64,000 bases of DNA, taken from positions 8,108-72,107 of the forward strand of contig JAQVDY010000005.1 in NCBI GenBank assembly GCA_028698215.1. Direction: 5' to 3'. This DNA is from Actinomycetota bacterium. Its GTDB lineage: Bacteria > Actinomycetota > Humimicrobiia > Humimicrobiales > Humimicrobiaceae. Position 1 is the stretch's first letter, and every line of letters begins with the position of its first letter. The translations under genes were made by a program, and so were the position numbers. Under the pieces are notes generated by a model. That model was not told where the DNA came from, did not search any database, and saw only the letters and a list, made by a program, of their open reading frames with translations. Positions 4,561 through 51,247 of this stretch are shown piece after piece.

Positions 4561-4752
4561 ATGTTAGGACTTAGCTAAAAGATAAACATGCTATAAAAGG
4601 TTAATAACATAGTTTAAGGTTAAACATTTAAGTAAAACTTTATAGTTATGTCTTTATAATTAATGTTTAATTTAAAGCTTAAAATATGTAATTAATACCG
4701 AAATTAGTATATTTTAATTACTTAAAACCAGGATAGAAAGGATTTCTATATA

Positions 4753-5190
4753 ATGGTAACTATTAATGTAAAATCAATTGATAAAAACGCTAAGTTTCCC
4801 ACTTACGCTCATCCCGGGGATGCTGGAATGGATCTGTACAGCAGGGTAATGATAACTTTAAAACCCATGGAAAGAAAGAAAATTCCTACCGGTATACAGG
4901 TGGCTATACCTGAAGGTTATGCCGGATTTGTGCAACCTAAATCTGGATTGGCCATTGATAATGGAATAGCGCTGGTAAACAGTCCAGGGCTAATTGATTC
5001 AGGGTTTAGGGGTGAAATATGTGCAATCTTAATTAATTTAGACCAGAAACAGGATTTTATTATAAATAAAGGCGATAAAATATGCCAGTTGGTTATACAA
5101 AAAGTAGAGAAAGCTGAAATTAAGACAGTTAGCCAACTGGATAATACCAGTAGGGGGAAGGGAGGGTTTGGCAGCACTGGAAGATTCTAA
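4753..5190 (+). CDS. dut: dUTP diphosphatase (trimeric dUTPase)
   Basis: 145 aa. Carries the dUTPase motifs AGMDL, GLIDSGFRGEI and the C-terminal GGFGSTG motif. Confidence 0.9.
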   Translation: MVTINVKSIDKNAKFPTYAHPGDAGMDLYSRVMITLKPMERKKIPTGIQVAIPEGYAGFVQPKSGLAIDNGIALVNSPGLIDSGFRGEICAILINLDQKQDFIINKGDKICQLVIQKVEKAEIKTVSQLDNTSRGKGGFGSTGRF

Positions 5191-6020
5191 TTTAGTAATA
5201 CCAAACCCAAACAGGACATTGCTTATACAAAAAGATTAATTCATTTCACCTTCAAGCGCATAAAAATTTAAAGCACATTATTTAAATTATTGCCCTGCCC
5301 CTAATGTTTACTGAGATATTTATCTATTATTATGACTACTATATATTACTAATTAGTATAAAAGATATAATTATAGATGTCTATATTGTAACATTTGTTA
5401 TAATATGAAAAGATTTATGGTAAATTATCTTATATTTTATGCCTAAACTAATGGCTTAACCTGGTTTGATAGCAAATTAACTGAATAGTTTATATACCAT
5501 CAAATTTTTTTAAAATAATGGATTCTTATACATAAATAATAATAAATTAGGACCTTGGAGAATGGCCGGTTGGGCAAGGCCATGTTATGGAGATCTGAGC
5601 TTAAGTTCCAAAAATAATATTACTAGCGCTGACAGGGTTATAGTTAATCATTTATGAAAATATAAATTAATCATCTATCAGAAACAGAAGCAATTAAAAG
5701 GTCTATATTGGCCAAAGAGAAGAAACTTAAAAACAAAATAATTGAGTTAGAATAAATAGATTATTTTATTTAAATTTTTACATTTTATAGAAGTAGGCTA
5801 GAAAGGCATGTGAAAGCGACTTTTTTAGGACAAAGGGATATAAAAGCCTGGTAATAGCTCTAAACACTAGGAAAAATATAGAATAAATATAACTACCGAT
5901 AATATATATTATGTTAACTTTTAAATATTTTAACTATTTTCCCCATCATTCCAAATACTCTACTTATATCCCCTGTAAATATTGTATTTAAAAGTTTACC
6001 AAAAATAATAAAAGCAAATA

Positions 6021-6060
6021 AAAAGTACAGGGGTATTACAATTACCCCTGTACTTTTTCC
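6021..6060 (-). terminator. Bidirectional rho-independent terminator after fucI
   Basis: Perfect 15-bp stem AAAAGTACAGGGGTA (6021-6035), loop TTACAAT, then TACCCCTGTACTTTT (6043-6057). A and T runs flank both sides. It lies 37 nt beyond the fucI stop. Confidence 0.8.
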
Positions 6061-6093
6061 AAGGACGATGTACGTGGTATAAAGAATCTTTAT

Positions 6094-7893
6094 TTAAATT
6101 TTCTTATACAGTGACCCAAAATTCCTACAGGCCCTGTAGTCAGCCCCCTCCATATCCTTGGTGCCAAAAGCAGCCCAGGCGCTAGGCCTAAACAGCTTGC
6201 TATCATCAACATTATGCATGGCCACCGGTATCCTTAGCATAGAAGCCAAGGTTATAAGCAAAGCTCCAATGTGACCATAACTGAATACTGCATGGTTTAC
6301 TCCCCAGTTGTTCATAAGGGTATAAGTATCGTTAAAGGGAATCTTACCGGTTATTTTAGGAGCAAACCAGGTATTGGGCCAGGTTGGGTCGGTTCTGTCA
6401 CTTAAAATCTGGCCAACTTTTTCCGGTAAAGAAACGGAATAGCCTTCTGCAATTTGAAGTACAGGGCCCAGTCCCTTGATAAGGTTTATCCTGAACATGG
6501 TTACCGGCATATCACCTTTAGTTACAAAGTTAGCAGAAAAGCCGCCGCCCCTGAAGTATTCAACGTTTGCTGGCCTAAACTGGGAATTGGCCAAGGTAGC
6601 CTTAACTTCATCTTCAGTGATATCCCAGTATGGCTTCATGGCAGGTTTTCCGTCTATGCTTTGCTGACCTGTTCCGTCTAATGCTGCTGAACCTGAATTT
6701 ATCAGATGTATAATACCAGTTTTGCCATAGCCCTCTAAATCATACCCGGTTACCCTTTTTACTGCCTCTGGGCTCCAGAAGGTTCTTACATCAGCAAATA
6801 CCTGTGCGGTATTGGTTAAGAGATGTCCAAAAATCATGGGGACGCCATTTAAGGCATCGTTTTCTGTAGCCACCAGGTAAGGCTGTCTTATGCCGTTCCA
6901 GTCAAAGGAAGTGTTTAGCATGGTTTCAGTAAAATCACCATTGGGGAAATGATCAGTCCACTGGCGCTGTCCCTGAAATCCGGATGCTAAAGCATTATGG
7001 CCCATAGCTTCTTCCTTAAAATCAATATCGGCCAGTTTTGGATTTCCTACCATAAGATCTCTTACAATTAAAGTCATTTTAACCACAAATTCCCAATCAG
7101 CATCTTTTTGTGCCCTGGTTTTCTGAATGGCAGGCGAGTTATTATCTGGTCCTTCTGTAAGGTTTTTCTTTACCCAATCCAGTGCTTTGCTGTATTCCTG
7201 GTGGTCATAGATGTTCTCTTCTATTCTCCTGATTATTTCAGTGGAATCAACATATTCACATCTCATTCCCAGATAATCTTCAAAGAAATTGGGATCTACT
7301 ATGGATCCGGCAATACCCATAGAGGTATTACCTATGGAAAGATAGGATTTACCCCTCATGGCTGCCACGGCTAGGCCGGCCTGGGCAAATTGAAGCAATT
7401 TCTGGGCTACATCTGAAGGTATGGAGGTATCATCTGCATCCTGCACGTCTTTACCGTATATGCCAAAAGCAGGAAGGCCTTTTTGGGCATGTGCTGCCAG
7501 AACTGCTGCCAGATATACTGCTCCCGGCCTTTCACTGCCGTTAAAACCCCAAACTGCTTTGGGCCTGGTGGGATGCATATCCATGGTTTCAGAGCCATAA
7601 CACCAGCTGGGAGTAACGGTAATGGTTAGGCCTACCCCTTCCCTGGCAAATTTATCATCGGCCATGGTAGCTTCTGCTACTCCGCCTATAGTGGTGTCCG
7701 CAATAACGCACTCCACTTGATCCCCGCAAGGGTGCCTTAAGTTTTCTGAAATTAGTTTAGCGGCAGATTTAGCCATGTTCATGGTCTGGGTTTCCAGAGA
7801 TTCCCTTACCCCCTTCCTTCTGCCATCGATGGTAGGCCTGATGCCTATTTTGGGCAAGGTACCTATTAACCTGTTTTTGGTTGAATCGCTCAT
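6094..7893 (-). CDS. fucI: L-fucose isomerase
   Basis: 599 aa. Near-collinear identity to E. coli FucI throughout, for example [55 protein letters not shown] and [29 protein letters not shown] lies 9 nt upstream. Confidence 0.95.
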
Positions 7894-7923
7894 GCTTTGG
7901 TGCTCCTTTATGTATTATTGTTT

Positions 7924-9168
7924 TTAATATTTTCCATACTCATAAGCTGCTTCCAGCATAGCTATAACATTCTGGGGAGGCACATCTGCCAAAATATTAT
8001 GTATTTGATTAAATACCATACCCCCACCCTCCCCTAAAATTTCAATTCTTTTTTTAACATCCTGCCTGATTTGTTCAGGGGTTCCCTTGGCCAGCACCTC
8101 TTGGGTATTACAGCCTCCACCCCAGAAAACCAGGTCATTTTTAAATTCTTTCTTAAGTTTTTCCGGTTCCATATCCCTGGCAGTGGTTTGAACTGGGTTT
8201 AATACATCTAAACCTGCATCAATTAATCCTGGTAAAAGCTCATAAATAGAGCCGCAAGAATGTAAAAATACCTTGCAGCTGCTGTTTTCATGTACAAAAT
8301 CCCACATTTTTTTATGGCGGGGCTTAAACACTTCATCATAGATTTCAGGTGACATGAATGGACCATCCTGTCCTCCCAGGTCATCACCAAACTGCAGCAA
8401 GTCAACATACTTCCCTACTCCATCAATAACCTTCTTTAACTTTACCAGATTTCTTTCTACCAGGGTGTCCAGCAGATACATGGTTTTCTTTTTATCGGTA
8501 TAAACATCCATCATAAAATTTGCCAGTCCCCTTAAAAATGTACCGGTTTCAAACATATTGCAGCCTACTGATAAAACTATGGAATAATCAGTCTCCTCAT
8601 ATAGCTTTTTAATGCCTTCCACAAACCGGTTAAATTGTTTAGGGTCAAATATGTTTAGATGCCAGGGCGGCGAAGGAATTGCCCACATATGCTTATCTAA
8701 ATCTTCATCATTGAATTCATCAGGGATAGATGGAAGGTTTTGGTAAATCCAAAAACACTGGTCTACGTAAAGGGAGGATGCTGGTTTCTTGCCCAGCCTG
8801 GTACCATTTTCATCTGAAACATATACGGTGTTTTTTTCATCAATTTCCACATTTAAAAATTGTGGTATTAAGCATTTAGACCCATCATTTAAGGTCCAGG
8901 TCCTCCAATCGTGTTCCGAGAGTAAGAACCCCTGTCCGGCATCAATGGCATCTATGTGGAAGTGTTTCATAATATCGCGTTGTGGAAAAGCAAGCTGCTG
9001 TATAAAGTCATACATCTTAGCCTGGCCACTTTCCTTTCCAAGCTCCTTTAACAGCTTATTGTAAGCAATAGTAGAAATACCTGAAGATCTCATGCTGCCC
9101 AGGTCAATGGGTATCCTGTCAGCGGTTTTATGTTCTAATATAGCCCTAATTCTTTGTCTGGAATTCAT
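7924..9168 (-). CDS. URO-D (uroporphyrinogen decarboxylase / MtaA-like methyltransferase) family protein, paralog 2
   Basis: Start trimmed to the internal Met (MNSRQRIRAIL...). It has SD GGGGAG 5 nt upstream and begins right after the stop of the upstream paralog. Family hallmarks are R-I-P-I-D-L-G near the N-terminus and the (beta/alpha)8 spacing. It parallels paralog 1 (TSYDRVIASLEHREPDRVPFDLGG). Confidence 0.6.
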   Translation of the reverse strand: MNSRQRIRAILEHKTADRIPIDLGSMRSSGISTIAYNKLLKELGKESGQAKMYDFIQQLAFPQRDIMKHFHIDAIDAGQGFLLSEHDWRTWTLNDGSKCLIPQFLNVEIDEKNTVYVSDENGTRLGKKPASSLYVDQCFWIYQNLPSIPDEFNDEDLDKHMWAIPSPPWHLNIFDPKQFNRFVEGIKKLYEETDYSIVLSVGCNMFETGTFLRGLANFMMDVYTDKKKTMYLLDTLVERNLVKLKKVIDGVGKYVDLLQFGDDLGGQDGPFMSPEIYDEVFKPRHKKMWDFVHENSSCKVFLHSCGSIYELLPGLIDAGLDVLNPVQTTARDMEPEKLKKEFKNDLVFWGGGCNTQEVLAKGTPEQIRQDVKKRIEILGEGGGMVFNQIHNILADVPPQNVIAMLEAAYEYGKY

Positions 9169-9181
9169 TTGGACTCCCCTG

Positions 9182-10345
9182 TTAGTATTTGCCAAAATCT
9201 TTTAATGTTTGCCACCAGGCCATGATATTTTCTGCAGGTACCGAGCTCTGTATGATGTGGATGGGAGAAAATATAAAGCCTCCTCCCGGAGCCAGGTCAT
9301 CAATTCTTCTTTTAGTTTCCTCTCTTACCTGTTGAGGAGTGCCAAAAGACATGATATTGTTATCACAGGAACCGCCCCAGAAGGTAAGATCTTGGCCAAA
9401 TTCTTTTTTAAGGGTTTTGGTATCCATTCCCTTGCAGTTAACCTGTACCGGGTTAAGGATATCCACTCCTGCTTCTAGGAGTAAAGGTATAGCCTCTTTT
9501 ATGGCTCCATCACAGTGGAAAAATATATAAACTTTGGATTTAGCCTTCTTTTTTATAAATTCAAACAGTTTTTTATGATAAGGCCAGATCAATTCCCGGT
9601 AGAGGTCCAGAGATACCAGCAAGCTGTCTTTATTGCCTAAATCATCAGCGGCAGATACCACCAATACATTATCCCCAACTGTTTCTAAAGCCTTCTGCCA
9701 ATAAGCCATTTTTATCTCCAGAAACTTGTCCATAATGGCCTGTACCATCTTTTTATTACATAGCATATCCATAAAAAATTGTTCATAGCCCCTCATCCAC
9801 ATGGCATTTTCCCACATCCCGGCACTCATTCTTTCTAAAAAATAAGCCCTCTTTTCCTCTTTTACTATCTGATCCGCTTTTTCTTTCAATTCTTCAAACC
9901 GGGCTGCATCAATTGGGTCCGGCCAGGGATAATTTTCTATGTCCGTAATAGTTTCGGCCTGCTGCAGGGGGCTTTGATAAATATCATAATAATGGCCTCC
10001 CTCTACCGGCATCCTGTATTCTATCCCGAACTCATCTATTAATCCGCAGTAATTATCTTTAATTCCCAAGTTCCGGTATAAACCTGGATTTTTTGGAGGA
10101 TTAGGAGCTACATTTTTAATATCAATTTCTAATTGTTCTATGATGTCCTGTTCCATTTTACCCAGTTGAGTAATGGTATCCCAGACTTCAGCCCGGCCCT
10201 TCAAGCCCAAAAAGTTTCTAAGATTATTTAGGGCCTTTATATTTATGCCCGCCACCAAGGCTCCACCCAGATCAAATGGAACCCTGTCCGGCTCCCTATG
10301 CTCAAGTGAAGCAATTACCCTGTCATAGCTTGTATATTTATCCAA
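9182..10345 (-). CDS. URO-D family protein, paralog 1 (probable TTG start, translationally coupled to AOR)
   Basis: The tool ORF (to 10567) overlaps the AOR 3' end in another frame. The homologous N-terminus starts at LDKYTSYDRVIASLEHREPDRVPFDLGG. The only start codon after the AOR stop (10356) is TTG at 10345. The C-terminus (VLNPVQ...FWGG...PGGGFIF) parallels paralog 2. Confidence 0.55.
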   Translation of the reverse strand: MDKYTSYDRVIASLEHREPDRVPFDLGGALVAGINIKALNNLRNFLGLKGRAEVWDTITQLGKMEQDIIEQLEIDIKNVAPNPPKNPGLYRNLGIKDNYCGLIDEFGIEYRMPVEGGHYYDIYQSPLQQAETITDIENYPWPDPIDAARFEELKEKADQIVKEEKRAYFLERMSAGMWENAMWMRGYEQFFMDMLCNKKMVQAIMDKFLEIKMAYWQKALETVGDNVLVVSAADDLGNKDSLLVSLDLYRELIWPYHKKLFEFIKKKAKSKVYIFFHCDGAIKEAIPLLLEAGVDILNPVQVNCKGMDTKTLKKEFGQDLTFWGGSCDNNIMSFGTPQQVREETKRRIDDLAPGGGFIFSPIHIIQSSVPAENIMAWWQTLKDFGKY

Positions 10346-10355
10346 TTTTTTAACT

Positions 10356-12239
10356 TTATTTATTTTTAAATTCAGTAAGTTCCAATTCCAGTAACTTGTG
10401 ATCGGTGGGTTTTCCCCCAGTATCCCACCCTGCCAGTTGATAGTAAAGCTGTTTGGCCTCCATAAACTGTTTTTTATCCAGGTGCATCCCTTGGTTCGGG
10501 CCATTTTCAATAGGTTCAAATATCCTGTCTGGCAGAATATCTTCTCCAACCTCTTCCCGCAGGGCAAACAACTTATACATATTTATCCTTTTTTCTCCAA
10601 TCTTAACCAGCTCAAACAAAGAAGTTTCCCATCCAGTCACCGCATCTATTATATCTACCAGATACTGAAAATTAAAAAATCTAACTGGGGAAAAGGCAAA
10701 AATACAGCCGCATAGTGCATCCAGCATAGAAAAAGCCGGCTGCAGTAAAAAAAACATCCTCACTTTGTCTTGATTTAGTGAATCTGCTGGTAACCGGTCA
10801 TATACGGTAAGTGGCGCCACCTTGTCCATAAACATTTGGTTTGCCTGAAAATCAAAGTCAGTATCATGTTCAACCACAGTATAGTAAGGGCCAATGGGAG
10901 AGACAGCGTAGCCTAATCCCAGCATTTGTTTAATTCTGGGTTCATGGAATGGCATTTCCATACCCTTTATATGCATCGCAAATTTTTCTGAACCCTGGAT
11001 ATGGTAGGAGGCCAGCCTTACCCCCTCGGCCAGGGTATCACCAATGGATTTTCTCTCCATAATCATGGTGGCCATCTTTAACATGGCCTGGGAATCACCC
11101 CACCTTAAACAGGTCCCCATGGTATCATCAGGGCTGATTAGCCCGTTTTCATAGCATTCCACTGCATAGCCCAATATGTTTCCCAGGGAGGTTCCGTCTA
11201 CCCCATAGTCGCAAATCATATTCCATAGCTTTAAGGTGGCTTCCATATCATCTACCAATAAATTGTAAGAGGTGGCAGCCAGGCTTTCCAGCTCGATAAG
11301 GCCGAACTCAGGATTAAGGTTAATATCCTTTACAGAAGGCAGCCTTTTTTTACACCCTCCCTGGCAGTGGGAACAGTTATGGTTCTCAGGGGCATATTTA
11401 TCAGCAATAGTGAAGCCATCTATGGATTCCGCCTTATCAAAGTAGGAATAATGAAAATTTTTAGCTGAAAGCATTCCCTGGTCAGATAATAGCTTTAGAT
11501 ACCCTGCATTGCTGGCGGGTCCATGCTGGCTTTCATTTAAGGGGTTGGTTAAAAAATTTTGCTCAAAATATTTGGAAACCTGGCCTAGCTTTTCAGGATT
11601 ACTGACCTTGATAGGTTTCTGGCCGTATACGCATAATGCTTTTAAATTCTTAGAACCCATTACTGCTCCCACACCACACCTTGAACTTATAAAACAGTTG
11701 TCTGTAATTATGGAAGCAAAACGAACCAGTTTTTCCCCTGCTGGCCCAATTAAGGCTATGCTGTGGCGGTTCAAGTCTTCCTGTTGGGTTAGAATGTTAT
11801 AAGCTTCAGAAGTTTTAAGCCCCCAAATATGATTAGCCTCTAAAAATTTTACTTCACCGTCATTTATCACTATCATGCAGGGCTTTTCAGATTTACCTTT
11901 TATAATAATAGCATCAAAACCAGATTTTTTAATCATTTCACCCAGGTAACCGGGAGTAGTAGCTTCCCCTATCAGGTTAGTTAAAGGAGACTTGGTAATT
12001 ACATTGTGCATGGCAGTTCCCGCACAATCCACTCCTGTAATGGGGGAAGTGGAAAAAATAAGGATATTATCCGGGGATAAGGGATCAGTTTTGGGCTTTA
12101 AATTCTTAAGTAAAAAGTAAGCTGCCAAGCAGGCCCCACCAATATATCTGCGGTAAAATTTATCATCTAACTTTATTGATTCTACCTGCTTATCGGTTAA
12201 ATCTATTTGTAAAACTTTGCCATTGTAACCAAAAGACAT
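10356..12239 (-). CDS. Aldehyde:ferredoxin oxidoreductase family protein (tungsten/molybdopterin, [4Fe-4S])
   Basis: 627 aa. AOR N-terminal signature MSFGYNGKVLQIDLT plus the conserved tungstopterin-binding and Cys-cluster regions. The ATG lies 4 nt after the ABC ATPase stop. Confidence 0.85.
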   Translation of the reverse strand: MSFGYNGKVLQIDLTDKQVESIKLDDKFYRRYIGGACLAAYFLLKNLKPKTDPLSPDNILIFSTSPITGVDCAGTAMHNVITKSPLTNLIGEATTPGYLGEMIKKSGFDAIIIKGKSEKPCMIVINDGEVKFLEANHIWGLKTSEAYNILTQQEDLNRHSIALIGPAGEKLVRFASIITDNCFISSRCGVGAVMGSKNLKALCVYGQKPIKVSNPEKLGQVSKYFEQNFLTNPLNESQHGPASNAGYLKLLSDQGMLSAKNFHYSYFDKAESIDGFTIADKYAPENHNCSHCQGGCKKRLPSVKDINLNPEFGLIELESLAATSYNLLVDDMEATLKLWNMICDYGVDGTSLGNILGYAVECYENGLISPDDTMGTCLRWGDSQAMLKMATMIMERKSIGDTLAEGVRLASYHIQGSEKFAMHIKGMEMPFHEPRIKQMLGLGYAVSPIGPYYTVVEHDTDFDFQANQMFMDKVAPLTVYDRLPADSLNQDKVRMFFLLQPAFSMLDALCGCIFAFSPVRFFNFQYLVDIIDAVTGWETSLFELVKIGEKRINMYKLFALREEVGEDILPDRIFEPIENGPNQGMHLDKKQFMEAKQLYYQLAGWDTGGKPTDHKLLELELTEFKNK

Positions 12240-12243
12240 AATA

Positions 12244-13752
12244 TTAAATATAATAGCTTCCTATTTCTTTACTAACTATATTGTAGCTATCTGCATCCTT
12301 GTTCACGTTTTCAATTTCCCCTACGATTTTTTTGTCCCTGAATATATATATTCTATTAGCCAGCTTAATAATCTCCGGCATATCCGAAGATATTAATATG
12401 ATAGATTTTCCAGACTTATGGGCCAGGTTATATATAAGTTGGTGGATGTATTCCTTGGCCCCTACATCCACGCCTATGGTAGGTTCATCAAATATAATGA
12501 TATCGCAGTCCGCTACCAGCCATTTGGCGATACTGACTTTCTGCTGATTTCCACCACTTAGCTTTCCTGCTATTTGGTTGAGCCCGGTAGTACGGATATC
12601 TAGGTTATCCACCATATCTTGGGCATGCTTCCTTTCTTTGTTGCCGTCAATAAACCTCAATATTTTGCTGGCTATCCTAGGCCAGATGGTAATACTGATA
12701 TTGGTTTGCAAGGTACTGCCCAGCAGAAGGCCTTCTTCCTTTCTATTTTCAGTAACATAACCCATCCGGTACCTGTATAGGCTATCAGCTATGGACCGGG
12801 GATTGATTTTTTTGCCTTTTAAGAATACTTCCCCAGACTGCCTCCGGTCCTCTCCAATGACAAGCCTGGCTAACTCGGTTCTGCCAGCACCTACCAATCC
12901 ATAAAAACCTAAAACTTCACCCGGGTAAAGTTTAAAGCTAACATCTTCAGCCTTGTGCTCCTTATAGATATTTTTTGCTTCCAATAAGGCTTTTCCGTTA
13001 TCCAGGGATTCAAACTTGAATGATTCAATCTTTTCTTCCCTGCCTATCATCATCTTTACCAAATCCTGTTTATCTACTTCGCTGATGGGTCTGGTTCCAA
13101 TTTTTTTACCATCCCTTAGTACGGTAACCATATCGCATACCATAAACACTTCTTCCAGTTTATGGGTAACAAACAAAATGATTATGCCTTTTTCCCTTAG
13201 ACCTTTTAGTATTGAAAAAAGCTTTTCTGCCTCGCCTTCAGAAATTGAAGAGGTAGGTTCGTCCAGAAGTAAAATTTTGGATTTGGAAGCCAATGATTTG
13301 GCTATCTCCACCATCTGTTTCTGGGCAACACTAAGCTCGCCAATAGGTTTGGTAGGGGGAACTTCTAATCCTACCATATCTAGATATTTCTTAGCAGTTT
13401 GATTAATTTTTTTCCAGTTAAGTACACCGGTCTTACCGTAAGTTACCATTTTGTCCAGCATAATATTTTCAGCCACACTATATCTGGGCAAAACCTGTAG
13501 CTCCTGGTTAACCACACTGATTTCTTTTTTCAAAGCATCTATGTAGTTTTCCACTACCAGTTCGTTAGAATTAAGATACATCTTACCGCTATCAGGCATG
13601 TGCACACCACAAATTACTTTAATTAAAGTGGATTTGCCTGCACCATTCTCCCCTAAAAGAGCATGTATCTGGCCCTGTCCAAATTCAACCGACACATCAT
13701 CTAACGCCTTTACTCCCGGAAAAGACTTACTTATGTTTTCTAACCTTAACAC
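12244..13752 (-). CDS. Sugar ABC transporter ATP-binding protein (RbsA/MglA-type, duplicated ATPase)
   Basis: 502 aa with two NBDs. Walker A GENGAGKST, LSGGNQQK signature, second NBD GLVGAGRTEL. GTG start with SD GGGGGA 8 nt upstream. Confidence 0.9.
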   Translation of the reverse strand: MLRLENISKSFPGVKALDDVSVEFGQGQIHALLGENGAGKSTLIKVICGVHMPDSGKMYLNSNELVVENYIDALKKEISVVNQELQVLPRYSVAENIMLDKMVTYGKTGVLNWKKINQTAKKYLDMVGLEVPPTKPIGELSVAQKQMVEIAKSLASKSKILLLDEPTSSISEGEAEKLFSILKGLREKGIIILFVTHKLEEVFMVCDMVTVLRDGKKIGTRPISEVDKQDLVKMMIGREEKIESFKFESLDNGKALLEAKNIYKEHKAEDVSFKLYPGEVLGFYGLVGAGRTELARLVIGEDRRQSGEVFLKGKKINPRSIADSLYRYRMGYVTENRKEEGLLLGSTLQTNISITIWPRIASKILRFIDGNKERKHAQDMVDNLDIRTTGLNQIAGKLSGGNQQKVSIAKWLVADCDIIIFDEPTIGVDVGAKEYIHQLIYNLAHKSGKSIILISSDMPEIIKLANRIYIFRDKKIVGEIENVNKDADSYNIVSKEIGSYYI

Positions 13753-13782
13753 CTTTTAGTTCCCCCTACCCTTCATATAATT

Positions 13783-14913
13783 TTATTTAAAATACTCTGT
13801 TTTGGCGCTTTCAGCTAAATCAAAAGCAGCCTGCCAAAGCTCATCCATGAAAGTATCAATATTATCCTGGGTAATAACTACACCAAAAGTATCGATAAAT
13901 GTATGGTCAGCCTTGGGCTCCAATCCATCTATCAGGTATTCCAGCAATAAAGGAGTAACATAACCCTGGCAGTATGGATTCTGGCCAAAGGTACCGGTAA
14001 TATAACCCTGCTCAACAGCCTTAAGTACAGCAGGATCATCATCAATACCAACAAAGGCTATACTGTCATTTTCCATTTCAGTAAGTATCTGAGCAACAGC
14101 TACAGTAGGATTGTATCCGGTGGTAACTATACCATTAATAGAATCTCCGCCAGCAGCTAATGCATTACTTACCTTTTCTATACATTCTTCCAGTTCATTC
14201 ATGTCACCTATGGTTTGCACTATTTCTACATCTGGATATTTGGCAGCAACTTCCTCCACGCCTTCTTTTCTGAGAATGGTGTTTGGATCGGTTACTACTT
14301 CCAGGACATTCAGTATTCCGCCTTTATAATCCATAGCTTCACATACTCTTTCAGCAGCTTCCATGGCAGCAGCCTTAACATCGGTAGCCACGGTAAAAGA
14401 TGCAGGAGTAGGCTCTTGGGTCTGAGCACCATAATTACATACCGGAACGCCTTGATCTACTACCTCTTGATATAAAGCATTAGCTCCAGCTGCATCCAGC
14501 GGGAAAACCATAAGTCCATTATAGCCCTGGGCTATTAATGCTTCTACCTGCTCATTTTCAGTAGGCTGGGTCCAGTCTGTACCTATTTGGGAATAAACTT
14601 CTACCCCGAAATCCTCAGCATGTTTAGCCAGGCCCTTTTTTACGGACTCATAGTATGGGTGAACTGCCGGCCAATAAGAACCCAACTTGTATTTGCTGGT
14701 ATCTACTGCTTCTTCAGCAGCCTCTTCAGCTTCTTCCACTACCGCTTCAGCAGCCTCTTCAGTTTCTTCCACTACCGCTTCAGCAGCCTCTTGAACTTCC
14801 TGGGCTGCTTGCTCTACTGTCTCTGCAGCGCCGGCGCAACCGCTAAGCGGAAGAGCCACTGCTAGTGACAATACCAGCAGGACCATTATAATTTTTGATA
14901 AATGCCTCTTCAT
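13783..14913 (-). CDS. Sugar-binding lipoprotein (ABC periplasmic binding protein, RbsB/PBP1 fold) with an acidic repeat linker
   Basis: Signal peptide with lipobox LSGC-AG. An Ala/Glu-rich linker (EAAEAVVEE x3) is followed by a periplasmic-binding-protein type I fold. SD AGGTGA. Confidence 0.8.
   Translation of the reverse strand: MKRHLSKIIMVLLVLSLAVALPLSGCAGAAETVEQAAQEVQEAAEAVVEETEEAAEAVVEEAEEAAEEAVDTSKYKLGSYWPAVHPYYESVKKGLAKHAEDFGVEVYSQIGTDWTQPTENEQVEALIAQGYNGLMVFPLDAAGANALYQEVVDQGVPVCNYGAQTQEPTPASFTVATDVKAAAMEAAERVCEAMDYKGGILNVLEVVTDPNTILRKEGVEEVAAKYPDVEIVQTIGDMNELEECIEKVSNALAAGGDSINGIVTTGYNPTVAVAQILTEMENDSIAFVGIDDDPAVLKAVEQGYITGTFGQNPYCQGYVTPLLLEYLIDGLEPKADHTFIDTFGVVITQDNIDTFMDELWQAAFDLAESAKTEYFK
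14712..14800. repeat. 33-bp in-frame tandem repeat (about 2.7 copies) encoding the AVVEEAEEAAE linker
   Basis: CTTCAGCAGCCTCTTCAG(C/T)TTCTTCCACTACCG occurs at 14712-14744 and 14745-14777, with a partial copy at 14778-14800. Confidence 0.85.
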
Positions 14914-14995
14914 TTACTATCACCTTTCTTTATGGTTTTATTGATAATACAGTTCTAATTTATTGCCACTACATAACCCCTCACCTCCATTTTTT

Positions 14996-15964
14996 TTATT
15001 CTATCAACCTTCTTTGATTGTATATATTTCTAACTCTGTCAATGGCTACTGCCAGCAGAATCAATAGTCCCAGGTATGCCTGTTCCCAATAAACATTGGT
15101 CTGCAGTATAATAAGACCGTTTTTAATCATTACCATAATAGCCCCACCTAAAAGAAGCCCGAATGCGGTAATAGAACCACCACTAAGAGCAGTACCTCCC
15201 AGAATAGCTACGGCAAAAGATATGATCAACCAGTCTTGTCCGGTAACCGGAGGTGCTGTACCCATTCTGGATATATAAAGTACTGCAGCCAGGGCGGCAA
15301 CAAAACCCGATAGTATATGGCTGAGTAATTTTATTTTGTCTGTATTTATACCTGAAAACTTGGAAGCTTCCAGGTTTTCTCCTACGGCCAGTATCCTTCT
15401 ACCTACTAAAGTATATTTAAAAAAGAGAAACATGATTATAAGGGCAAAAAGAGTGAAGATAAAAATATAGGGAATCCCAAACACTTTGCCTTTCCCCAAT
15501 ATGGTAAAAGTTAAGGGGATATTTACAAAAGAAAAACCTTGGGTAAAACCAAAATTTATACCAGTAAAGATAAATGAAGTAGCCAGGGTAACAATGAAAG
15601 CGTTTATGCCAAACTTGGCAGTAATAACCCCGTTTATGGCTCCGCAGGCTATACCTACCACTAATGCGGCAATAGTAGCTACTGCTCCATGTATTCCATG
15701 GATATCCATCAGGTATCCTGCAGTAATGGTAGCCAGACCGCCTATAGCACCCACTGATAGGTTCATGTCACCCACTACCAAGACCAATCCTTGAGCCAGC
15801 CCTATAAATACATATAAAGACAGCGTTCGGCCGGTAGTATACATGTTAAAAGGTGTCAGAAAACTGTCAGAAAAAATTGAAAGTATGGCAAATAATATCA
15901 TGGTTGCTATAAACAACCCAAAGTTTCCGCTGGTCAATATGTCTCTTATGTAGTTTTTTTTCAA
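14996..15964 (-). CDS. Sugar ABC transporter permease (RbsC/BPD-TM family)
   Basis: 322 aa, about 10 TM segments typical of RbsC. TTG start with SD GGGGAG 7 nt upstream. Confidence 0.85.
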   Translation of the reverse strand: MKKNYIRDILTSGNFGLFIATMILFAILSIFSDSFLTPFNMYTTGRTLSLYVFIGLAQGLVLVVGDMNLSVGAIGGLATITAGYLMDIHGIHGAVATIAALVVGIACGAINGVITAKFGINAFIVTLATSFIFTGINFGFTQGFSFVNIPLTFTILGKGKVFGIPYIFIFTLFALIIMFLFFKYTLVGRRILAVGENLEASKFSGINTDKIKLLSHILSGFVAALAAVLYISRMGTAPPVTGQDWLIISFAVAILGGTALSGGSITAFGLLLGGAIMVMIKNGLIILQTNVYWEQAYLGLLILLAVAIDRVRNIYNQRRLIE

Positions 15965-16016
15965 TTTCTTACTCCCCTTTGTTTGTTAAAGGATTTATTA
16001 AAAACTATATTGTTTT

Positions 16017-16760
16017 TCAGCTGCTTAATATTTCATCCTGTTTTTGGGAACTTTGTATCTGGCTATAGTTATTTTTTACAAATTCCAGGTGCTCTCTGAT
16101 ACTGGTTACTGCTTCATATTGTTTTTTATTTTTTATATTATTAAAAATAGTTCTGTGATCCTGCAAAGTGTTTTGCATTACCCCTGGTATTTCAGTAGTT
16201 TTAATAAGTATTTCAGTCATACAATATTTCAGGAGAGGAAAAATGATATCAAAATATTTTTTAATTACCTGGTTATGGGATGCTTCTGACAGCTTCTGGT
16301 GAAATTCATAATCCAGCCTTACGAACTCTTCGCTATTTTGCTTCCTAATATAGAAATCAGTAAGTTCCAGGTTTTCTTCCATTCCCTTTAAATCACTCTC
16401 ATTAGCGTGGTCAATGGCTGCCTGCACAGCAATTGACTCAAATAATTCCCTGAATTCCAAGAGGTCGGGCACTATCTTTTCATCCGGTTTAAAGGTGATA
16501 CGGGCCGGGTTAAAAAAAGAATTAATGGAAAAATCCTTGATATATGCCCCTACTCCAGGTTTGATTTCAATTACATCTACCAGCTCCAGTGCCTGAAGGG
16601 CTTCCCTTACGCTTCCCCTGCCGGTTTGATAGATGCGGCAGAGCTCATTTTGAGAAGGTAGAAGCTGGCCTGAGTTTAATTTACCTTGCCCAATATCTTC
16701 CAAAATCCGGTCAATAATAATTCTAGGAGCTTTCTTTTTTACACTCATCATACCTGTCAT
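16017..16760 (-). CDS. GntR-family transcriptional regulator (FadR/FCD subfamily)
   Basis: N-terminal GntR wHTH (LPSQNELCRIYQTGRGSVREALQALE) plus a C-terminal all-helical FCD-like domain. It sits 52 bp upstream of the permease and is co-oriented, so it is likely the first gene of the operon. Confidence 0.8.
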   Translation of the reverse strand: MTGMMSVKKKAPRIIIDRILEDIGQGKLNSGQLLPSQNELCRIYQTGRGSVREALQALELVDVIEIKPGVGAYIKDFSINSFFNPARITFKPDEKIVPDLLEFRELFESIAVQAAIDHANESDLKGMEENLELTDFYIRKQNSEEFVRLDYEFHQKLSEASHNQVIKKYFDIIFPLLKYCMTEILIKTTEIPGVMQNTLQDHRTIFNNIKNKKQYEAVTSIREHLEFVKNNYSQIQSSQKQDEILSS

Positions 16761-16848
16761 ACAAGTGTTATTGTTTTTAAATATTAGGCAACATTTAAAT
16801 AAAAGTCAATATAAAACTGCTAAAAAAAGAAATTAAAACAATTATTAT

Positions 16849-16888
16849 TGTTAACGTTTACATTATTAAAAAACAATTAATTTGTCAA
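16849..16888 (-). promoter_or_regulatory. Operon promoter (minus strand TTGACA-17-TAATGT) overlapped by a cre/LacI-type operator TGTTAACGTTTACA
   Basis: -35 is the reverse complement of 16883-16888 and -10 the reverse complement of 16860-16865. The 14-bp palindrome-like operator at 16849-16862 fits WTGNAANCGNWNNCW with one mismatch and overlaps -10/+1. Confidence 0.55.
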
Positions 16889-16897
16889 GTTTTTTCG

Positions 16898-17908
16898 CTA
16901 AGAAGTAGAGCTCCTGATTACAAGGTGTGTTCCCAGCCTGATAATTAAAGGCGGCTCATTTCTGTAATTTGATGGTTTGTTAATTTTTTTTATGATAAGC
17001 TCGGCTGCAGTATTGCCCATACTGTACACCGGTTGATTTATGGTGGTGATGGGAGGATCGGTTATCTGGGTCCAGTCCGGGTTGTCAAAACTTAATATGC
17101 CAATATCCCGGGGAATGTGCAAACCTTTGTTTTTTATGGCCAAAACCGCTCCTAGTGCCATATCCAGGTTAGTAACAAATATAACTTCCGGTCTTGGGTC
17201 GGCCTCCACTAGTTCGGTTGCTAAATTTATTCCACTTCTTTTTTTAAAATTACCAGTTTTTATTAAACCAGGGTCAATATTTATGTTTGCCTCAGTCAAA
17301 GCCCGCTTATAGCCCTCCAGCCGCTCTGCCCCCGTAGTCCGGTCAGGAAAACCATTAATAATAGCAATTCTTTTATATCCCCTGCTGATAAGGTATTTTA
17401 TTGCTTCATATGAGCCTTTTTCATTATCTACCAGGACTGCATCATTTTCCAATCCGGGTACTAGTCTGTCTACCAGTACTATCTGCATCCCTGATTTTTT
17501 TAAAAAATCAATATAGCTGGCATTCTTTCCGGTAGGAGTCAATATTATGCCGTCAACCCGGTTGGCTTTTAAAATCCTTAAATACTTTAGTTCTTTTTGG
17601 GGATTATCATCCCCATTGCATAAAATAAGGCTGTAACCCTCCTCTATGGCCACATCCTCTACTGCTTTAGCTAAAGTTGAATAAAATTGTGACAGCACAT
17701 TTCCTACAATAATACCCAGGGTATTGGTCTTTTCTCTTCTAAGGCTGCTGGCCACTGCGTTTATTTCATAATTGAATTGGGAGGCCACCTTCAGGACTTT
17801 TTTTTTGGTTTCCTCTTTTACTCCAGGATAATTGTGCATTACCCTGGACACCGTAGCGGTGGAAACACCTGCTTTACTGGCTATGGTTTTTATATTAATT
17901 TTTTTCAT
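16898..17908 (-). CDS. LacI-family transcriptional regulator
   Basis: Start placed at MKKINIKTIASKAGVSTATVSRVM (LacI HTH). A periplasmic-binding-protein-like effector domain follows. The longer tool ORF reads through the upstream operator. Confidence 0.85.
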   Translation of the reverse strand: MKKINIKTIASKAGVSTATVSRVMHNYPGVKEETKKKVLKVASQFNYEINAVASSLRREKTNTLGIIVGNVLSQFYSTLAKAVEDVAIEEGYSLILCNGDDNPQKELKYLRILKANRVDGIILTPTGKNASYIDFLKKSGMQIVLVDRLVPGLENDAVLVDNEKGSYEAIKYLISRGYKRIAIINGFPDRTTGAERLEGYKRALTEANINIDPGLIKTGNFKKRSGINLATELVEADPRPEVIFVTNLDMALGAVLAIKNKGLHIPRDIGILSFDNPDWTQITDPPITTINQPVYSMGNTAAELIIKKINKPSNYRNEPPLIIRLGTHLVIRSSTS

Positions 17909-17919
17909 GGCTTTATTTA

Positions 17920-17933
17920 TGTTAACGTTTACA
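17920..17933 (-). promoter_or_regulatory. Second copy of the operator TGTTAACGTTTACA, just upstream of the LacI start
   Basis: The 15-mer TGTTAACGTTTACAT is identical to 16849-16863. It lies 12 nt upstream of the LacI ATG, a geometry consistent with autoregulation. Confidence 0.5.
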
Positions 17934-17965
17934 TAATAAGCTAAAAAAAACATAAAATCAATAAG

Positions 17966-18523
17966 CTATGTCGATTTCTTAACTTCAGCCGGATTCCCGA
18001 AAGCCAAGCAGTTGGGGGGTATGGATTTTAACACCAGGGAATGGGCCCCAATAGTAGTATTTTCCCCTATTTTTACAGGTCCCAGTGCAGTTACACCGGT
18101 ATACAGGATAACATTATTTTCAACTACCGGATAACCTGGTTGGCCATGGTGGAACATGGAATGCCCCAAGCCTCCCAGCACCACATTGGAAAAAATACTG
18201 ACATTGTCTCCCAGCTTTACTCCCCTGCCTATGACCACTCCAGAAGAATGCCATATCCTGCACCCTGAACCAATTTCTGCCCCAGGGTCAATTTCCGCTC
18301 CGGTAAACCAGAAATTAATACGGCAGCATATTTCTGCCAACAGAGCCAGCCTTATCTTATAGAGACGGTGGTAAAATCTATAAAAAACTAAAGCTTGAAC
18401 CCCCGGCTTAACCAGTATGATCCTAACCGCCCCCCAAAAGGAAGGCCTGCCCTTTAAAGTTCCATATTTACTAAAAAGGCGCCTTACATCTCCTACCAGG
18501 CTGCCCTGTTTAGTGTTTGCCAT
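17966..18523 (-). CDS. Serine O-acetyltransferase-like hexapeptide-repeat acyltransferase (short CysE type)
   Basis: YRFYHRLYKIR...GAEIDPGAEIGSGCRIWHSSGVVIG...GDNVSIFSNVVLGG matches the CysE left-handed beta-helix core. The gene is not next to any cys genes. Confidence 0.65.
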   Translation of the reverse strand: MANTKQGSLVGDVRRLFSKYGTLKGRPSFWGAVRIILVKPGVQALVFYRFYHRLYKIRLALLAEICCRINFWFTGAEIDPGAEIGSGCRIWHSSGVVIGRGVKLGDNVSIFSNVVLGGLGHSMFHHGQPGYPVVENNVILYTGVTALGPVKIGENTTIGAHSLVLKSIPPNCLAFGNPAEVKKST

Positions 18524-18535
18524 ATCGATTATTGA

Positions 18536-18928
18536 TTATTTGTTTAGATATTTAAATACCAGACTGTGAAAATCCCGTTTATAGAAAAGTTTTATATTGA
18601 TATGGGGATAAAGCTCCTTAATTCTTTTAATCTTCCGGTTTTTTTTGGTAACCAGCTTCTGGTTCATGGTAGTAAGCTCTATGAACAAGTCATAATCACT
18701 TAAATAGAAATCAGGAGTAAAGCTCTCCAATACATTTCCTTGGCTATCCCAGCTCAGAGGGAAAGTTTTGGGCTCATACTCCCATTTTATTCTGTAATAA
18801 TCCAATATTTTGGCAAATTCCTTTTCACTTTCATGGGCAAACTTTATTTTTTCAGCATTAATAAAAAGTGAATCGGGTTTATTGGCTTTATTAATATTGT
18901 CTATTACTTCTGGTTTATTTCCCTTCAT
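18536..18928 (-). CDS. Hypothetical protein, possible PD-(D/E)xK nuclease fold
   Basis: 130 aa. HESEKEF ... TPDFYL ... DLFIELT..K resembles an E / PD / ExK arrangement. The start overlaps the upstream stop (TAATG). Confidence 0.35.
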   Translation of the reverse strand: MKGNKPEVIDNINKANKPDSLFINAEKIKFAHESEKEFAKILDYYRIKWEYEPKTFPLSWDSQGNVLESFTPDFYLSDYDLFIELTTMNQKLVTKKNRKIKRIKELYPHINIKLFYKRDFHSLVFKYLNK

Positions 18929-19428
18929 TATTCTTCTTGCTTAAAATCATCAGGAGTTACATGTTCCAAAAAATCTTTAAACTGAGCCACTTCATCTTCA
19001 ATGGTTTGAATTTCCAGTCCTGCATTTTCAATTACATGATCTGCGGCATAAATATCACATTTGCTTCTAACAGCCAAAGCTATGGCATCCGAAGGCCGGG
19101 AATCAATCTTTAGCTGGCCTAGATTTTTAGTTTTCATATCTATAAAGGCATAGAAAGTGTTATCTTTAATATCGAATATTTCAATTTGAGTTATATTACA
19201 GTTTAGTTTCTCCAGTATATTGATAACCAGATCATGTGTCATAGGGCGGGGAGTTTTTATATTGGATAACTCCAGGGCAATGGCAGTAGCCTCAAAAGCG
19301 CCAATCCAAATAGGCAGATACCGGTTACCGTTTTCCTCTTTTAGCAGGATTATAGGCTTCTGTGAAGGAAGTTCTATTCTAACTCCCTCCAAGGTCATTT
19401 TTATCATTTTTTTATTCTTATCCAGCAT
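18928..19428 (-). CDS. Bifunctional nuclease family protein (DUF151/BFN domain)
   Basis: 166 aa. RYLPIWIGAFEATAIALEL and DSRPSDAIALAVR are the BFN-domain hallmarks. The C-terminal tail is acidic. Confidence 0.7.
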   Translation of the reverse strand: MLDKNKKMIKMTLEGVRIELPSQKPIILLKEENGNRYLPIWIGAFEATAIALELSNIKTPRPMTHDLVINILEKLNCNITQIEIFDIKDNTFYAFIDMKTKNLGQLKIDSRPSDAIALAVRSKCDIYAADHVIENAGLEIQTIEDEVAQFKDFLEHVTPDDFKQEE

Positions 19429-19500
19429 AAATTAACTATAAATTTTACCTTTAAATATTATAACACCTATAAGGTTATTATCATACCGGGCCGGGTATGA

Positions 19501-20109
19501 TTAAGGCCTGGAGTCGCCATTTAGGGATTGTTCGATATCTTTTTTTACAGTATCAATATTTAATTCATAAATAGAATCAAGGTTCCTAAAATGTTGTTTG
19601 TAGTCAAGACCATAGCCTACAATATATTTTTCTCCTATGCTGAAGCCTTTATACTTTATCTCTACATCTACCATTCTTCTAGTATCCCGGTCCAGAAGGG
19701 TGCATATCTCTATGCTTTTGGGGTATCTGGATTTTAAGTTTCTTAACAAATAGCTTATGGTCAGGCCGGTGTCAATTATATCTTCGGCAATCAGTACGTC
19801 CTTTTCTTCAATGGAGTCTTCCAAATCCTTGGTTATCCTTACTACCCCTCCCCCTGTATCTGATATTCCATAAGTAGATATACCCATAAAGTCAATGCTT
19901 AGAGGTAGGTTGATTTGCCTGATAAGGTCGGTTAAGAAAATTACACCACCACGCAGTATACTTATTACCAGCAAGTTCTTCCGGGCATAATCCCTTGTTA
20001 TCTGCTGGCCCAGCTCAGCTATGCGGTTCTGGATATCTGAACTGGAAAACACTACCTTTCCAATTACGCTTTCTGTTCCGGGTTTAGCTTGTAAGTCCTG
20101 TAATTCCAA
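19501..20109 (-). CDS. hpt: Hypoxanthine-guanine phosphoribosyltransferase
   Basis: PRPP-binding motif VLIAEDIIDTGLT. Also SIDFMGISTYG and the flexible-loop region. The N-terminus may be shorter than the tool ORF. Confidence 0.85.
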   Translation of the reverse strand: MELQDLQAKPGTESVIGKVVFSSSDIQNRIAELGQQITRDYARKNLLVISILRGGVIFLTDLIRQINLPLSIDFMGISTYGISDTGGGVVRITKDLEDSIEEKDVLIAEDIIDTGLTISYLLRNLKSRYPKSIEICTLLDRDTRRMVDVEIKYKGFSIGEKYIVGYGLDYKQHFRNLDSIYELNIDTVKKDIEQSLNGDSRP

Positions 20110-25167: not shown

Positions 25168-25245
25168 TGGTCGGGACGAGAGGATTTGAACCTCCGACCC
25201 CCAGTACCCCATACTGGTGCGCTAGCCAAACTGCGCCACGTCCCG
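25168..25245 (-). tRNA. tRNA-Pro (anticodon GGG), CCA encoded
   Basis: Hand-folded cloverleaf. Acceptor CGGGACG/CGTCCCG, D-stem GCGC/GCGC, anticodon stem CCAGT/ACTGG with loop AUGGGGU (anticodon GGG), T-stem GGAGG/CCTCT with loop TTCAAAT, discriminator A, then CCA. Confidence 0.85.
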
Positions 25246-51235: not shown

Positions 51236-51247
51236 GAGGTGTAGCTG

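Follow-up and report, generated by a model that had tools for sequence, protein, structure and literature searches.

A putative sugar catabolic operon of Actinomycetota that joins L-fucose isomerase to two URO-D-fold proteins and a variant aldehyde:ferredoxin oxidoreductase

RESULTS

Gene content and transcription signals

We analyzed a 64-kb stretch of DNA from an Actinomycetota bacterium of the family Humimicrobiaceae (GenBank assembly GCA_028698215.1, contig JAQVDY010000005.1), which we call the window and whose numbering is used throughout; start codons were set from the sequence together with ribosome-binding sites. Open reading frame (ORF) listing and family scans place eight co-oriented genes on its minus strand, in the order gntR, permease, sugar-binding lipoprotein (SBP), ATPase, aldehyde:ferredoxin oxidoreductase (AOR), UROD2, UROD1 and fucI, with a lacI gene upstream (Table 1). 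An original prediction, made from the letters alone, had given the same gene content, order and strand, and all nine genes are confirmed by the ORF and family scans. Read from fucI toward lacI, the intergenic gaps measure 30, 13, 10, 4, 30, 82, 52, and 137 nt, the AOR start codon lying 4 nt past the ATPase stop and the longest gap separating gntR from lacI. The predicted spacing of 4-52 nt or overlap is thus nearly right, the exception being the 82 nt between SBP and permease. The strong terminator proposed after fucI is found as a stem followed by a T-run, and the operator proposed upstream of gntR, with lacI alongside, corresponds to LacI-type sites before both lacI and gntR. All parts belong to known families and, judged from these assignments, the unit is a sugar catabolic operon.

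Table 1. Features of the operon and its control region, in window coordinates
Feature	Position	Strand	Basis or remark
Intrinsic terminator 3' of fucI	6020-6058	minus	16-bp stem with 6 GC pairs, 7-nt loop, T-rich tail
fucI, L-fucose/D-arabinose isomerase	6094-7893	minus	NCBIfam equivalogs
UROD1, URO-D-fold, 414 aa, core partner of fucI	7924-9168	minus	
UROD2, URO-D-fold, 387 aa, TTG start	9182-10345	minus	Pfam URO-D 82 bits, C-terminal part only
AOR-family oxidoreductase, Tyr-variant sugar-locus clade	10356-12239	minus	AFOR_N and AFOR_C
Fused double ABC ATPase	12244-13752	minus	Two ABC_tran domains
Sugar-binding lipoprotein (SBP)	13783-14913	minus	Pfam Peripla_BP_4
CUT2-type sugar ABC permease	14996-15964	minus	Pfam BPD_transp_2
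GntR/FCD-family regulator, first gene of the operon	16017-16760	minus	Pfam GntR and FCD
Promoter-like TTGACT-17-TAATAT upstream of gntR	16781-16809	minus	Consensus scan only, 9/12 matches
Second operator copy, lacI-gntR intergenic	16849-16862		Between -35-like TTAATA and -10-like AATAAT (16869-16841)
LacI-family regulator gene	16898-17908	minus	Pfam LacI helix-turn-helix and Peripla_BP_1/3; ATG 17908
LacI/cre-type palindromic operator TGTAAACGTTAACA upstream of lacI	17920-17933		Exact copy of the 16849-16862 site

FucI and the importer

By its family matches and conserved residues, FucI is a true, canonical ortholog. It scores above the cutoffs of two NCBIfam models (NF008220, 1078 bits against 775; TIGR01089, 1041 bits against 850), has the N1, N2, and C domains of Pfam, and matches D-arabinose isomerase (3a9r) at 974 bits and Escherichia coli FucI (1fui) at 889 bits. 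E337, D361, and H528 (E. coli numbering), which we take to be the catalytic and Mn-binding residues, are identical in the alignment to 1fui. The transporter has the composition of a CUT2 monosaccharide importer, with a Peripla_BP_4 SBP, a BPD_transp_2 permease and a fused double ATPase. In the SBP we found a lipobox-containing signal peptide (LSGC) and a linker rich in Glu and Ala, and the best NCBIfam matches of the permease (AraH, GguB, RbsC-like) and of the ATPase (AraG, AlsA, RbsA-like) lie below cutoff.

The URO-D-fold proteins form a large family in carbohydrate loci

UROD1 and UROD2 are 31% identical to each other. The Pfam URO-D model covers only their C-terminal parts (profile positions 100/151-346; 69-82 bits), and an NCBIfam scan of both proteins gave no HemE match. 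Their closest folds are MtaA and HemE, with 12-18% identity to HemE structures. A search of solved structures with the UROD1 sequence returned nothing better than E ~0.03; with a family profile, the best solved sequence was the corrinoid-dependent chloromethane methyltransferase I (MTI) CdmB (E = 5e-4). The same profile aligns H303-S-C305 of UROD1 on the 'HiCG' motif of MtaA, whose zinc-site ligands we take to be His-x-Cys plus a distal Cys. UROD2 contains the motifs FHCDG and WGGSC, with H-C-D at the H303-S-C305 position. Among 132 UROD1 representatives at 33-49% identity, D263, H303, N324, Q327, and H390 are 91-99% conserved (H303 98%, H390 91%) and C305 is 84% conserved. This analysis upholds a canonical Cys2His zinc site only in part: position C353 lacks conservation, and H390 is a candidate ligand with better conservation. 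It is likely that the URO-D proteins contain a metal site, which would not be of the classical Cys2His type.

Relatives of UROD1 number 895 at E < 1e-30 among 50%-identity cluster representatives, and thousands at 60-80% identity occur in metagenomes. UROD2 is 63-77% conserved in Actinomycetota, Planctomycetota, and Prolixibacteraceae. The two families together comprise hundreds of 50%-identity clusters from Actinomycetota, Planctomycetota, Bacteroidota, and other phyla. By fold matches and motifs they are a large uncharacterized branch of the MtaA/URO-D fold and not HemE.

We then compared the genomic settings of these relatives. Paralogs of at least 60% identity lie directly 3' of an AGE-type mannose isomerase and beside LacI and a CUT2 transporter in five loci (L016, L017, L021, L028, and L032), and relatives at 41-48% identity stand beside GH38, SSF symporters with RhaM, a GH29 fucosidase, GFO_IDH_MocA, xylose-isomerase-like TIM proteins, and DUF4432. 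A GDSL esterase, RhaA, and sugar transporters are further neighbors of the family, and one relative (P0122) adjoins an FGGY kinase, a DeoR regulator, and an SBP. The richest array is found in L025 (ERZ13693099 contig, 3614-17335), where five URO-D paralogs are accompanied by RhaM, RhaA, an iron-dependent alcohol dehydrogenase (Fe-ADH), a xylose-isomerase-like TIM protein, a Ru5P-epimerase-like protein, and two Zn-ADHs; this sugar locus has no rhamnulokinase and no rhamnulose-1-P aldolase.

Some related loci show links to methyl-transfer proteins. In L107, a URO-D gene is followed after 212 nt by a gene for a B12-binding corrinoid protein and then by a gene of the MttB family of trimethylamine-type methyltransferases (region 16149-19798), and in L020 an MttB fragment (3-461) lies just upstream of gntR. 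A 648-aa metagenomic protein (P0192) combines a UROD2-type domain (44% identical over 381 residues) with C-terminal B12-binding_2 and B12-binding domains containing the DxHxxG motif, its B12 domain matching the L107 corrinoid protein at E = 1e-41. As P0192 is represented by a single protein from a 6.8-kb contig, we downgraded it from firm Rosetta-stone evidence: it may be a genuine CmuA-like fusion, or a gene call in which a sequencing error has merged two adjacent genes.

The AOR belongs to a clade with an apparently altered active site

The AOR matches AFOR_N and AFOR_C at 223 and 287 bits and aligns end to end with Pyrococcus furiosus AOR (1aor, 325 bits). In this alignment it keeps the CxxCxxxC motif (C-SH-C-QGG-C) and the fourth Cys (in DALCGC), the equivalent of Glu313, the CDYGVD motif, and two pterin-binding Asp motifs. 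The position of His448 is taken by a Tyr ('GPYYT'), followed by an 11-residue insertion, a region (VVEHDTD) that holds a His. We take Glu313 and His448 (P. furiosus numbering) to be active-site residues. In an alignment of 22 AOR homologs, all members of at least 48% identity have GP[YIV]Y, and relatives at 40-45% identity mostly have 'GADH'. Although the original prediction called the enzyme tungsten-type, the metal may be W or Mo, between which the sequence does not discriminate, the family being one of tungsto- or molybdopterin enzymes. No tungstate transporter was seen in the window, and an Rfam scan of all of it for molybdenum/tungsten cofactor (Moco/Tuco), cobalamin, and other riboswitches returned only a tRNA (25171-25245), with no Moco/Tuco riboswitch in the operon region.

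The Tyr-type AORs (at least 48% identity) lie in sugar-transporter loci in all four arrangements that we examined. Besides the window type, these are L107 (LacI, AOR, FucI, CUT1 transporter, URO-D), L106 (ROK, CUT1 transporter, AOR, FGGY kinase), and L109 (ROK, D-lyxose isomerase, CUT1 transporter, AOR, URO-D, second AOR). A 'GADH' relative at 44% identity is found beside a glycyl-radical enzyme. The triad of aldose-ketose isomerase, AOR, and URO-D protein is found repeatedly in loci of independent arrangement, whose isomerases and transporters come from different families, and this recurrence argues for a functional module. The suggestion that the AOR acts on lactaldehyde has a biochemical precedent in the AOR-family enzyme WOR1 of Eubacterium limosum, which oxidizes lactaldehyde in vitro (PMC11725836).

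A gene trio resembling LctBCD is located on the plus strand of the window, 32 kb from the operon (50426-53904). It encodes EtfB (50426-51235), EtfA (51248-52471), and a FAD-linked oxidase of the GlcD/D-lactate dehydrogenase type (52453-53904). LctBCD-like complexes oxidize lactate using reduced ferredoxin, and the trio may fit an AOR yielding lactate and reduced ferredoxin.

The operon is conserved around a fucI-UROD1 core

The exact matches and near relatives of UROD1 and the AOR are found in metagenome-assembled genomes (MAGs) of Actinomycetota, including Ca. Humimicrobium oleiphilum UBA1414 and Ca. Humimicrobiaceae bacterium. The full order from gntR to fucI is kept at 54-89% protein identity in L001, L010, L012, L014, and L019, and its AOR-to-fucI portion in the partial contig L026. 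Altogether, the operon is conserved in at least seven Actinomycetota MAG lineages, counting L004 and L020, both of which lack UROD2. Clostridia and Halanaerobiales had been suggested as the groups in which to compare neighborhoods; the same order recurs in Actinomycetota MAGs and not in either of them, and with all close loci belonging to Actinomycetota MAGs we reject an origin in either group. No close annotated relative on plasmids was returned by tblastn for UROD1 or for the AOR. From the gene order kept across lineages at these levels of protein identity, we conclude that the operon is real and under selection, and that its genes have not come together by chance.

Variation among relatives separates a core from its accessories. 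L004-L007 and L020 contain the operon without UROD2, and tblastn detects 3' remnants of this gene between the AOR gene and UROD1, of 41 codons in L004 (9848-9970) and 62 codons in L020 (7146-7331). The breakpoints differ, so UROD2 appears to have been deleted twice independently and therefore to be dispensable. UROD1, by comparison, adjoins fucI in all fetched lineages at 61-81% identity, and stands alone with it in L008 and L009. L008, which shares the chromosomal neighborhood, contains only LacI-FucI-UROD1 and no AOR, and in L018 the locus is shortened to an operator directly followed by a 5'-truncated UROD1 and fucI (9797-11100). On this comparative evidence, fucI and UROD1 are the invariant core.

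Regulation

The operator TGTAAACGTTAACA is a 14-nt CG-centered palindrome present in two exact copies, one before gntR and one before lacI. The lacI copy follows closely on a -10-like TATTAT, 12 nt upstream of the ATG. With both strands counted and up to 2 mismatches allowed, chance alone would give 0.45 matches to this pattern in the window, where 7 are found. It is conserved in L001 (before lacI and gntR), in L008 (before lacI and twice before fucI), and in L107 (before the AOR gene). This conservation before lacI, gntR, fucI, and the AOR gene supports LacI control of the catabolic genes. HTH_LacI, a sugar-binding core, and the 14-bp CG-centered palindrome at target promoters are all present, as expected for a LacI-family regulator; the protein has only sub-threshold NCBIfam matches (PurR, RbsR, CcpA), and its ATG agrees with 336-aa orthologs. 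The operator 15-mer ATGTAAACGTTAACA also fits WTGNAANCGNWNNCW, which we take to be the cre consensus, and CcpA-like global catabolite control may act instead of, or besides, the local LacI. Control of the operon by GntR is inferred from gene position only. The best NCBIfam matches of this regulator, all below cutoff, are NanR, LldR, PdhR, and GlcC, every one of them a carboxylic-acid-sensing regulator.

Surroundings of the operon

The flanking genes are of housekeeping type: dUTPase, KARI, LexA, and HflX lie on one side, and an SAT-like hexapeptide transferase, BFN, PRT, DUF3048, PBP5, and others on the opposite side. Between dUTPase and the fucI terminator we noted an AT-rich stretch of ~900 bp (5191-6093) with no ORF of at least 80 aa and no Rfam match; the bin 4001-6000 has a GC content of 32%, and the matching gap in L001 measures ~530 bp. 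Two neighboring ORFs have no Pfam match. One of 130 aa (18536-18928, minus strand) is kept at 66-85% identity beside the hexapeptide transferase in related MAGs, and at the place of the other, of 395 aa (3373-4560, plus strand), L001 has an MFS transporter.

DISCUSSION

A candidate route for methylated deoxy-sugars

We are fairly confident that the operon is an inducible unit, controlled by LacI and probably by GntR, through which an uncultured anaerobic actinobacterium takes up and breaks down a sugar of the L-fucose/D-arabinose type and oxidizes an aldehyde derived from it in a ferredoxin-linked step. The imported sugar is most likely decorated, O-methylation being our best guess. For the URO-D step we favor corrinoid-type methyl transfer from a methylated sugar, to which we assign a probability of roughly one in three (about 0.35). 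Among the activities originally suggested for the URO-D proteins, methyl transfer on a methyl-sugar is the one most favored by fold, motif, and context. Arrays of up to 3-5 paralogs in some loci would fit substrate-specific MTIs or, more generally, decoration-removing enzymes, and the latter notion would also fit the glycoside hydrolase and GDSL esterase neighbors, which point to decorated glycans.

According to this proposal, LacI would keep the operon repressed in the absence of the sugar, and a carboxylic-acid intermediate or product would be the signal for the FCD-type GntR. UROD1, aided by the dispensable UROD2, would take the methyl group off the imported sugar as a corrinoid-type methyltransferase and pass it to a corrinoid protein encoded elsewhere, from which it would enter the methyl branch of the Wood-Ljungdahl pathway. 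This pathway is present in the UBA1414 clade (PMC7325909). FucI would turn the freed aldose into a ketose, and the Tyr-variant AOR would oxidize a sugar-derived hydroxy-aldehyde, most likely L-lactaldehyde or glycolaldehyde, to the acid with ferredoxin as the acceptor. A kinase and an aldolase acting between the FucI and AOR steps would be either encoded elsewhere or bypassed.

Several observations weigh against methyl transfer, or leave parts of the scheme without a visible gene. Among annotated ORFs of at least 110 aa in the window, there is no corrinoid (B12-binding) protein, no methyltransferase II (MTII), and no activase. A B12-binding protein occurs in just one of the 109 fetched loci (L107; no other is found in 1.09 Mb including the window), to which only the singleton P0192 can be added. 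For characterized URO-D-fold MTIs, the corrinoid protein is usually encoded within five genes, and MTII is also near (PMC13222342). The NCBIfam MtaA/CmuA model TIGR01463 scores UROD1 at 46 bits and UROD2 at 39 bits against a cutoff of 235, the MtaA/MtbA matches of UROD2 reach ~40 bits against cutoffs of 235-600, and C353 is conserved in only 42% of the 132 UROD1 representatives. The same ORF set contains no FGGY kinase and no class II (FucA-type) aldolase, bearing out the predicted absence of fucK and fucA from the window, and neither family is found in the 10-kb flanks of L001. The best solved relatives of the SBP, the Mycobacterium smegmatis CUT2 SBPs 4rs3 and 5hko, match at 75 bits only and are too distant for ligand inference. 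Demethylation would also leave the repeated adjacency of AOR clade, URO-D protein, and isomerase unexplained. Finally, corrinoid-dependent demethylation is not known to us for aliphatic methyl ethers of sugars.

Alternative explanations

That adjacency would be accounted for if the ketose were processed without a kinase. The metal site of UROD1 would then perform carbonyl or enediolate chemistry (C-C cleavage or dehydration) on the ketose produced by FucI, so that a URO-D protein replaces FucK and FucA, and the resulting hydroxy- or keto-aldehyde would be oxidized by the AOR with ferredoxin. The aldose-ketose isomerases directly beside UROD1-type genes belong to four folds with no relation to one another, those of FucI, AGE-type mannose isomerase, RhaA, and D-lyxose isomerase, and those loci contain an aldehyde-handling enzyme (AOR, Fe-ADH, or Aldedh) and no kinase or aldolase. 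The minimal LacI-FucI-UROD1 unit of L008, the recurrence of AOR-URO-D adjacency with different transporters and isomerases in L107 and L109, and the sensing of lactate, glycolate, or pyruvate by the nearest named relatives of GntR would all be in line with such a route, as would the conservation in the family of D263, H303, Q327, and H390 rather than of a Cys-rich alkyl-transfer site. However, aldol or dehydratase chemistry has no precedent in the URO-D fold, and many family members lie beside glycoside hydrolases or transporters without an isomerase or aldehyde enzyme. The paralog arrays, the adjacency to a corrinoid protein, and the fusion would remain unexplained, and an FGGY kinase is present beside P0122 and a class II aldolase near L004. 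Taken together, we regard this route as unlikely, though by no means negligible.

The AOR could instead act on the sugar itself, as an aldose/aldonate:ferredoxin oxidoreductase interconverting the imported sugar, to which LacI would respond as its ligand, and the corresponding sugar acid, which would be the ligand of GntR/FCD, with FucI linking the aldose to a ketose branch and the URO-D proteins being accessory. The potential of the aldonate/aldose couple, approximately -0.44 V, is close to that of ferredoxin. In L106, ROK, an ABC transporter, and the AOR are accompanied solely by an FGGY kinase resembling xylulokinase/gluconokinase, a gene set that would then provide a complete route from sugar to aldonate to phospho-aldonate. 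No aldehyde-generating aldolase accompanies the AOR clade in the four of four arrangements examined, the His-to-Tyr change in the active site is specific to the sugar-locus clade, and a LacI sugar sensor is paired with an FCD-type acid sensor. We nevertheless find this assignment distinctly doubtful: FucI and an aldose-oxidizing AOR in one operon would split one substrate between two branches, the window contains no aldonate dehydratase or 2-keto-3-deoxy-aldonate aldolase, and we know of no AOR that oxidizes cyclic aldoses.

A more conventional account would see here the ordinary L-fucose/D-arabinose pathway, whose FucK and FucA genes would lie beyond the window. The AOR would simply take the place of AldA for lactaldehyde or glycolaldehyde, and the URO-D genes would be passengers from unrelated methyl metabolism. 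The canonical FucI would suit it, as would the Fe-ADH, class II aldolase, and Aldedh genes that adjoin the operon in relatives, and passengers might be expected from the twofold loss of UROD2 with retention of the operon and from a lineage rich in methyltransferase genes (MttB in L020 and L107). What makes it improbable in our view is the behavior of the URO-D genes: UROD1 is fixed beside fucI in all fetched lineages and stays there in the reduced loci L008 and L009, URO-D genes recur with the AOR clade in independently arranged loci, and carbohydrate loci are the general setting of the family.

The decarboxylase option of the original prediction finds no support, and a role of both URO-D genes as true HemE in tetrapyrrole synthesis can be rejected almost outright, given the C-terminal-only Pfam matches, the exclusively weak and MtaA-type NCBIfam matches, the low identity to HemE structures, the MtaA-type HxC motif, and a context that is consistently sugar-related in ~110 loci, with no heme or corrin biosynthesis neighbors.

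Significance

Returning to methyl transfer from a methylated sugar, our broader and more tentative proposal combines two suggestions: that the URO-D proteins of carbohydrate loci may be unrecognized anaerobic sugar O-demethylases, and that the Tyr-type AOR clade may be a ferredoxin oxidoreductase for sugar-derived aldehydes or aldoses, the two together forming a low-potential, kinase-sparing route for modified deoxy-sugars. We think it slightly less probable than the methyl-transfer step taken by itself. Deoxy-sugars bearing methyl groups or other decorations occur widely in the glycans of algae, plants, and bacteria, and the sugar demethylases known to us, P450 systems and Rieske-type oxygenases, all need O2. 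If the proposal is correct, URO-D enzymes would be corrinoid-type methyltransferases that cleave methyl ethers of fucose, rhamnose, mannose, and related sugars and deliver the methyl groups to C1 metabolism, placing a low-potential, kinase-sparing route in anoxic sediments and the subsurface. The operon ties a securely identified FucI to two members of a very large uncharacterized URO-D-fold family and to a distinct AOR subclade, and thus offers a testable entry point to anaerobic methyl-sugar demethylation. It also points to a sugar-catabolic role of tungsto-/molybdopterin AOR enzymes that would yield low-potential electrons.

Even if the demethylase idea fails, thousands of genes annotated as 'uroporphyrinogen decarboxylase' or 'methyltransferase' in carbohydrate loci are mis- or under-annotated, and the AOR variant deserves biochemical study. 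The interest of the locus lies in a very large unannotated enzyme family tied to carbohydrates and in an AOR subclade with an apparently altered active site that appears dedicated to sugar loci. Full-text literature searches found no paper on the combination of URO-D protein, FucI, and AOR or on URO-D-fold proteins in sugar loci, in keeping with the initial impression that no pathway of this composition has been characterized.

Comparison with known systems

We compared the operon with characterized systems that share some of its parts. Like the E. coli fuc regulon (fucPIK/fucAO with FucR), it has a FucI ortholog within a dedicated, sugar-inducible uptake and isomerase unit. In contrast to that regulon, it has no FucK, FucA, FucO, FucU, or FucP in the operon or the window, uptake would proceed through a CUT2 ABC importer, the regulators are LacI and GntR/FCD rather than the DeoR-type FucR, and an AOR and two URO-D-fold genes are added. 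The non-phosphorylative L-fucose pathway uses fucose dehydrogenase, fuconate dehydratase, and either 2-keto-3-deoxyfuconate (KDF) dehydrogenase/hydrolase or an aldolase, and ends in lactate or lactaldehyde. It likewise dispenses with a sugar kinase, and its acid intermediates would suit an FCD-type GntR, but it operates without FucI, and none of its enzymes is encoded in the window. A DHDPS-type aldolase and an Aldedh gene lie beside the operon in L020 only.

The sulfo-TAL and sulfo-TK pathways cleave sulfofructose without a hexose kinase. Their operons resemble the kinase-independent ketose route considered above in the succession of importer, isomerase, an enzyme acting on an unphosphorylated 6-substituted ketose, and an aldehyde dehydrogenase or reductase. 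They differ in using a transaldolase or transketolase where a URO-D fold is found here, and an NAD-dependent dehydrogenase where an AOR is found here, and the substrate is another one. A neighbor of the operon in L020 matches the NCBIfam SftI model.

With P. furiosus AOR and E. limosum WOR1, the AOR shares the two-domain architecture, the 4Fe-4S cysteines, the Glu313 equivalent, and the pterin motifs. It differs in the Tyr at the His448 position and the 11-residue insertion, and is encoded by a single gene without partner subunits; a sugar-operon setting has not been described for the characterized AORs.

The URO-D-subunit corrinoid systems (MtaABC, MtoABCD, the MtvABC/Odm/Vdm O-demethylases, and CdmBCA) share with UROD1 and UROD2 the TIM-barrel fold, and the HxC motif aligns with that of MtaA. 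CdmB is the best solved match, relatives of the URO-D proteins lie beside or are fused with a corrinoid protein, and paralog arrays are another common trait. Unlike in those systems, a corrinoid protein, MTII, and activase are missing from the operon and from almost all related loci, NCBIfam scores stay far below cutoff, and C353 of UROD1 is not conserved in the family; the context is one of sugars rather than of methoxy-aromatics, methylamines, or halomethanes. In marine bacteria, a cytochrome P450 demethylates 6-O-methyl-D-galactose (PMC6292453), so that a methyl ether is removed before sugar catabolism, as we propose here. The P450 belongs to an unrelated enzyme family, depends on O2, and releases formaldehyde, whereas the present system would act by anaerobic methyl transfer.

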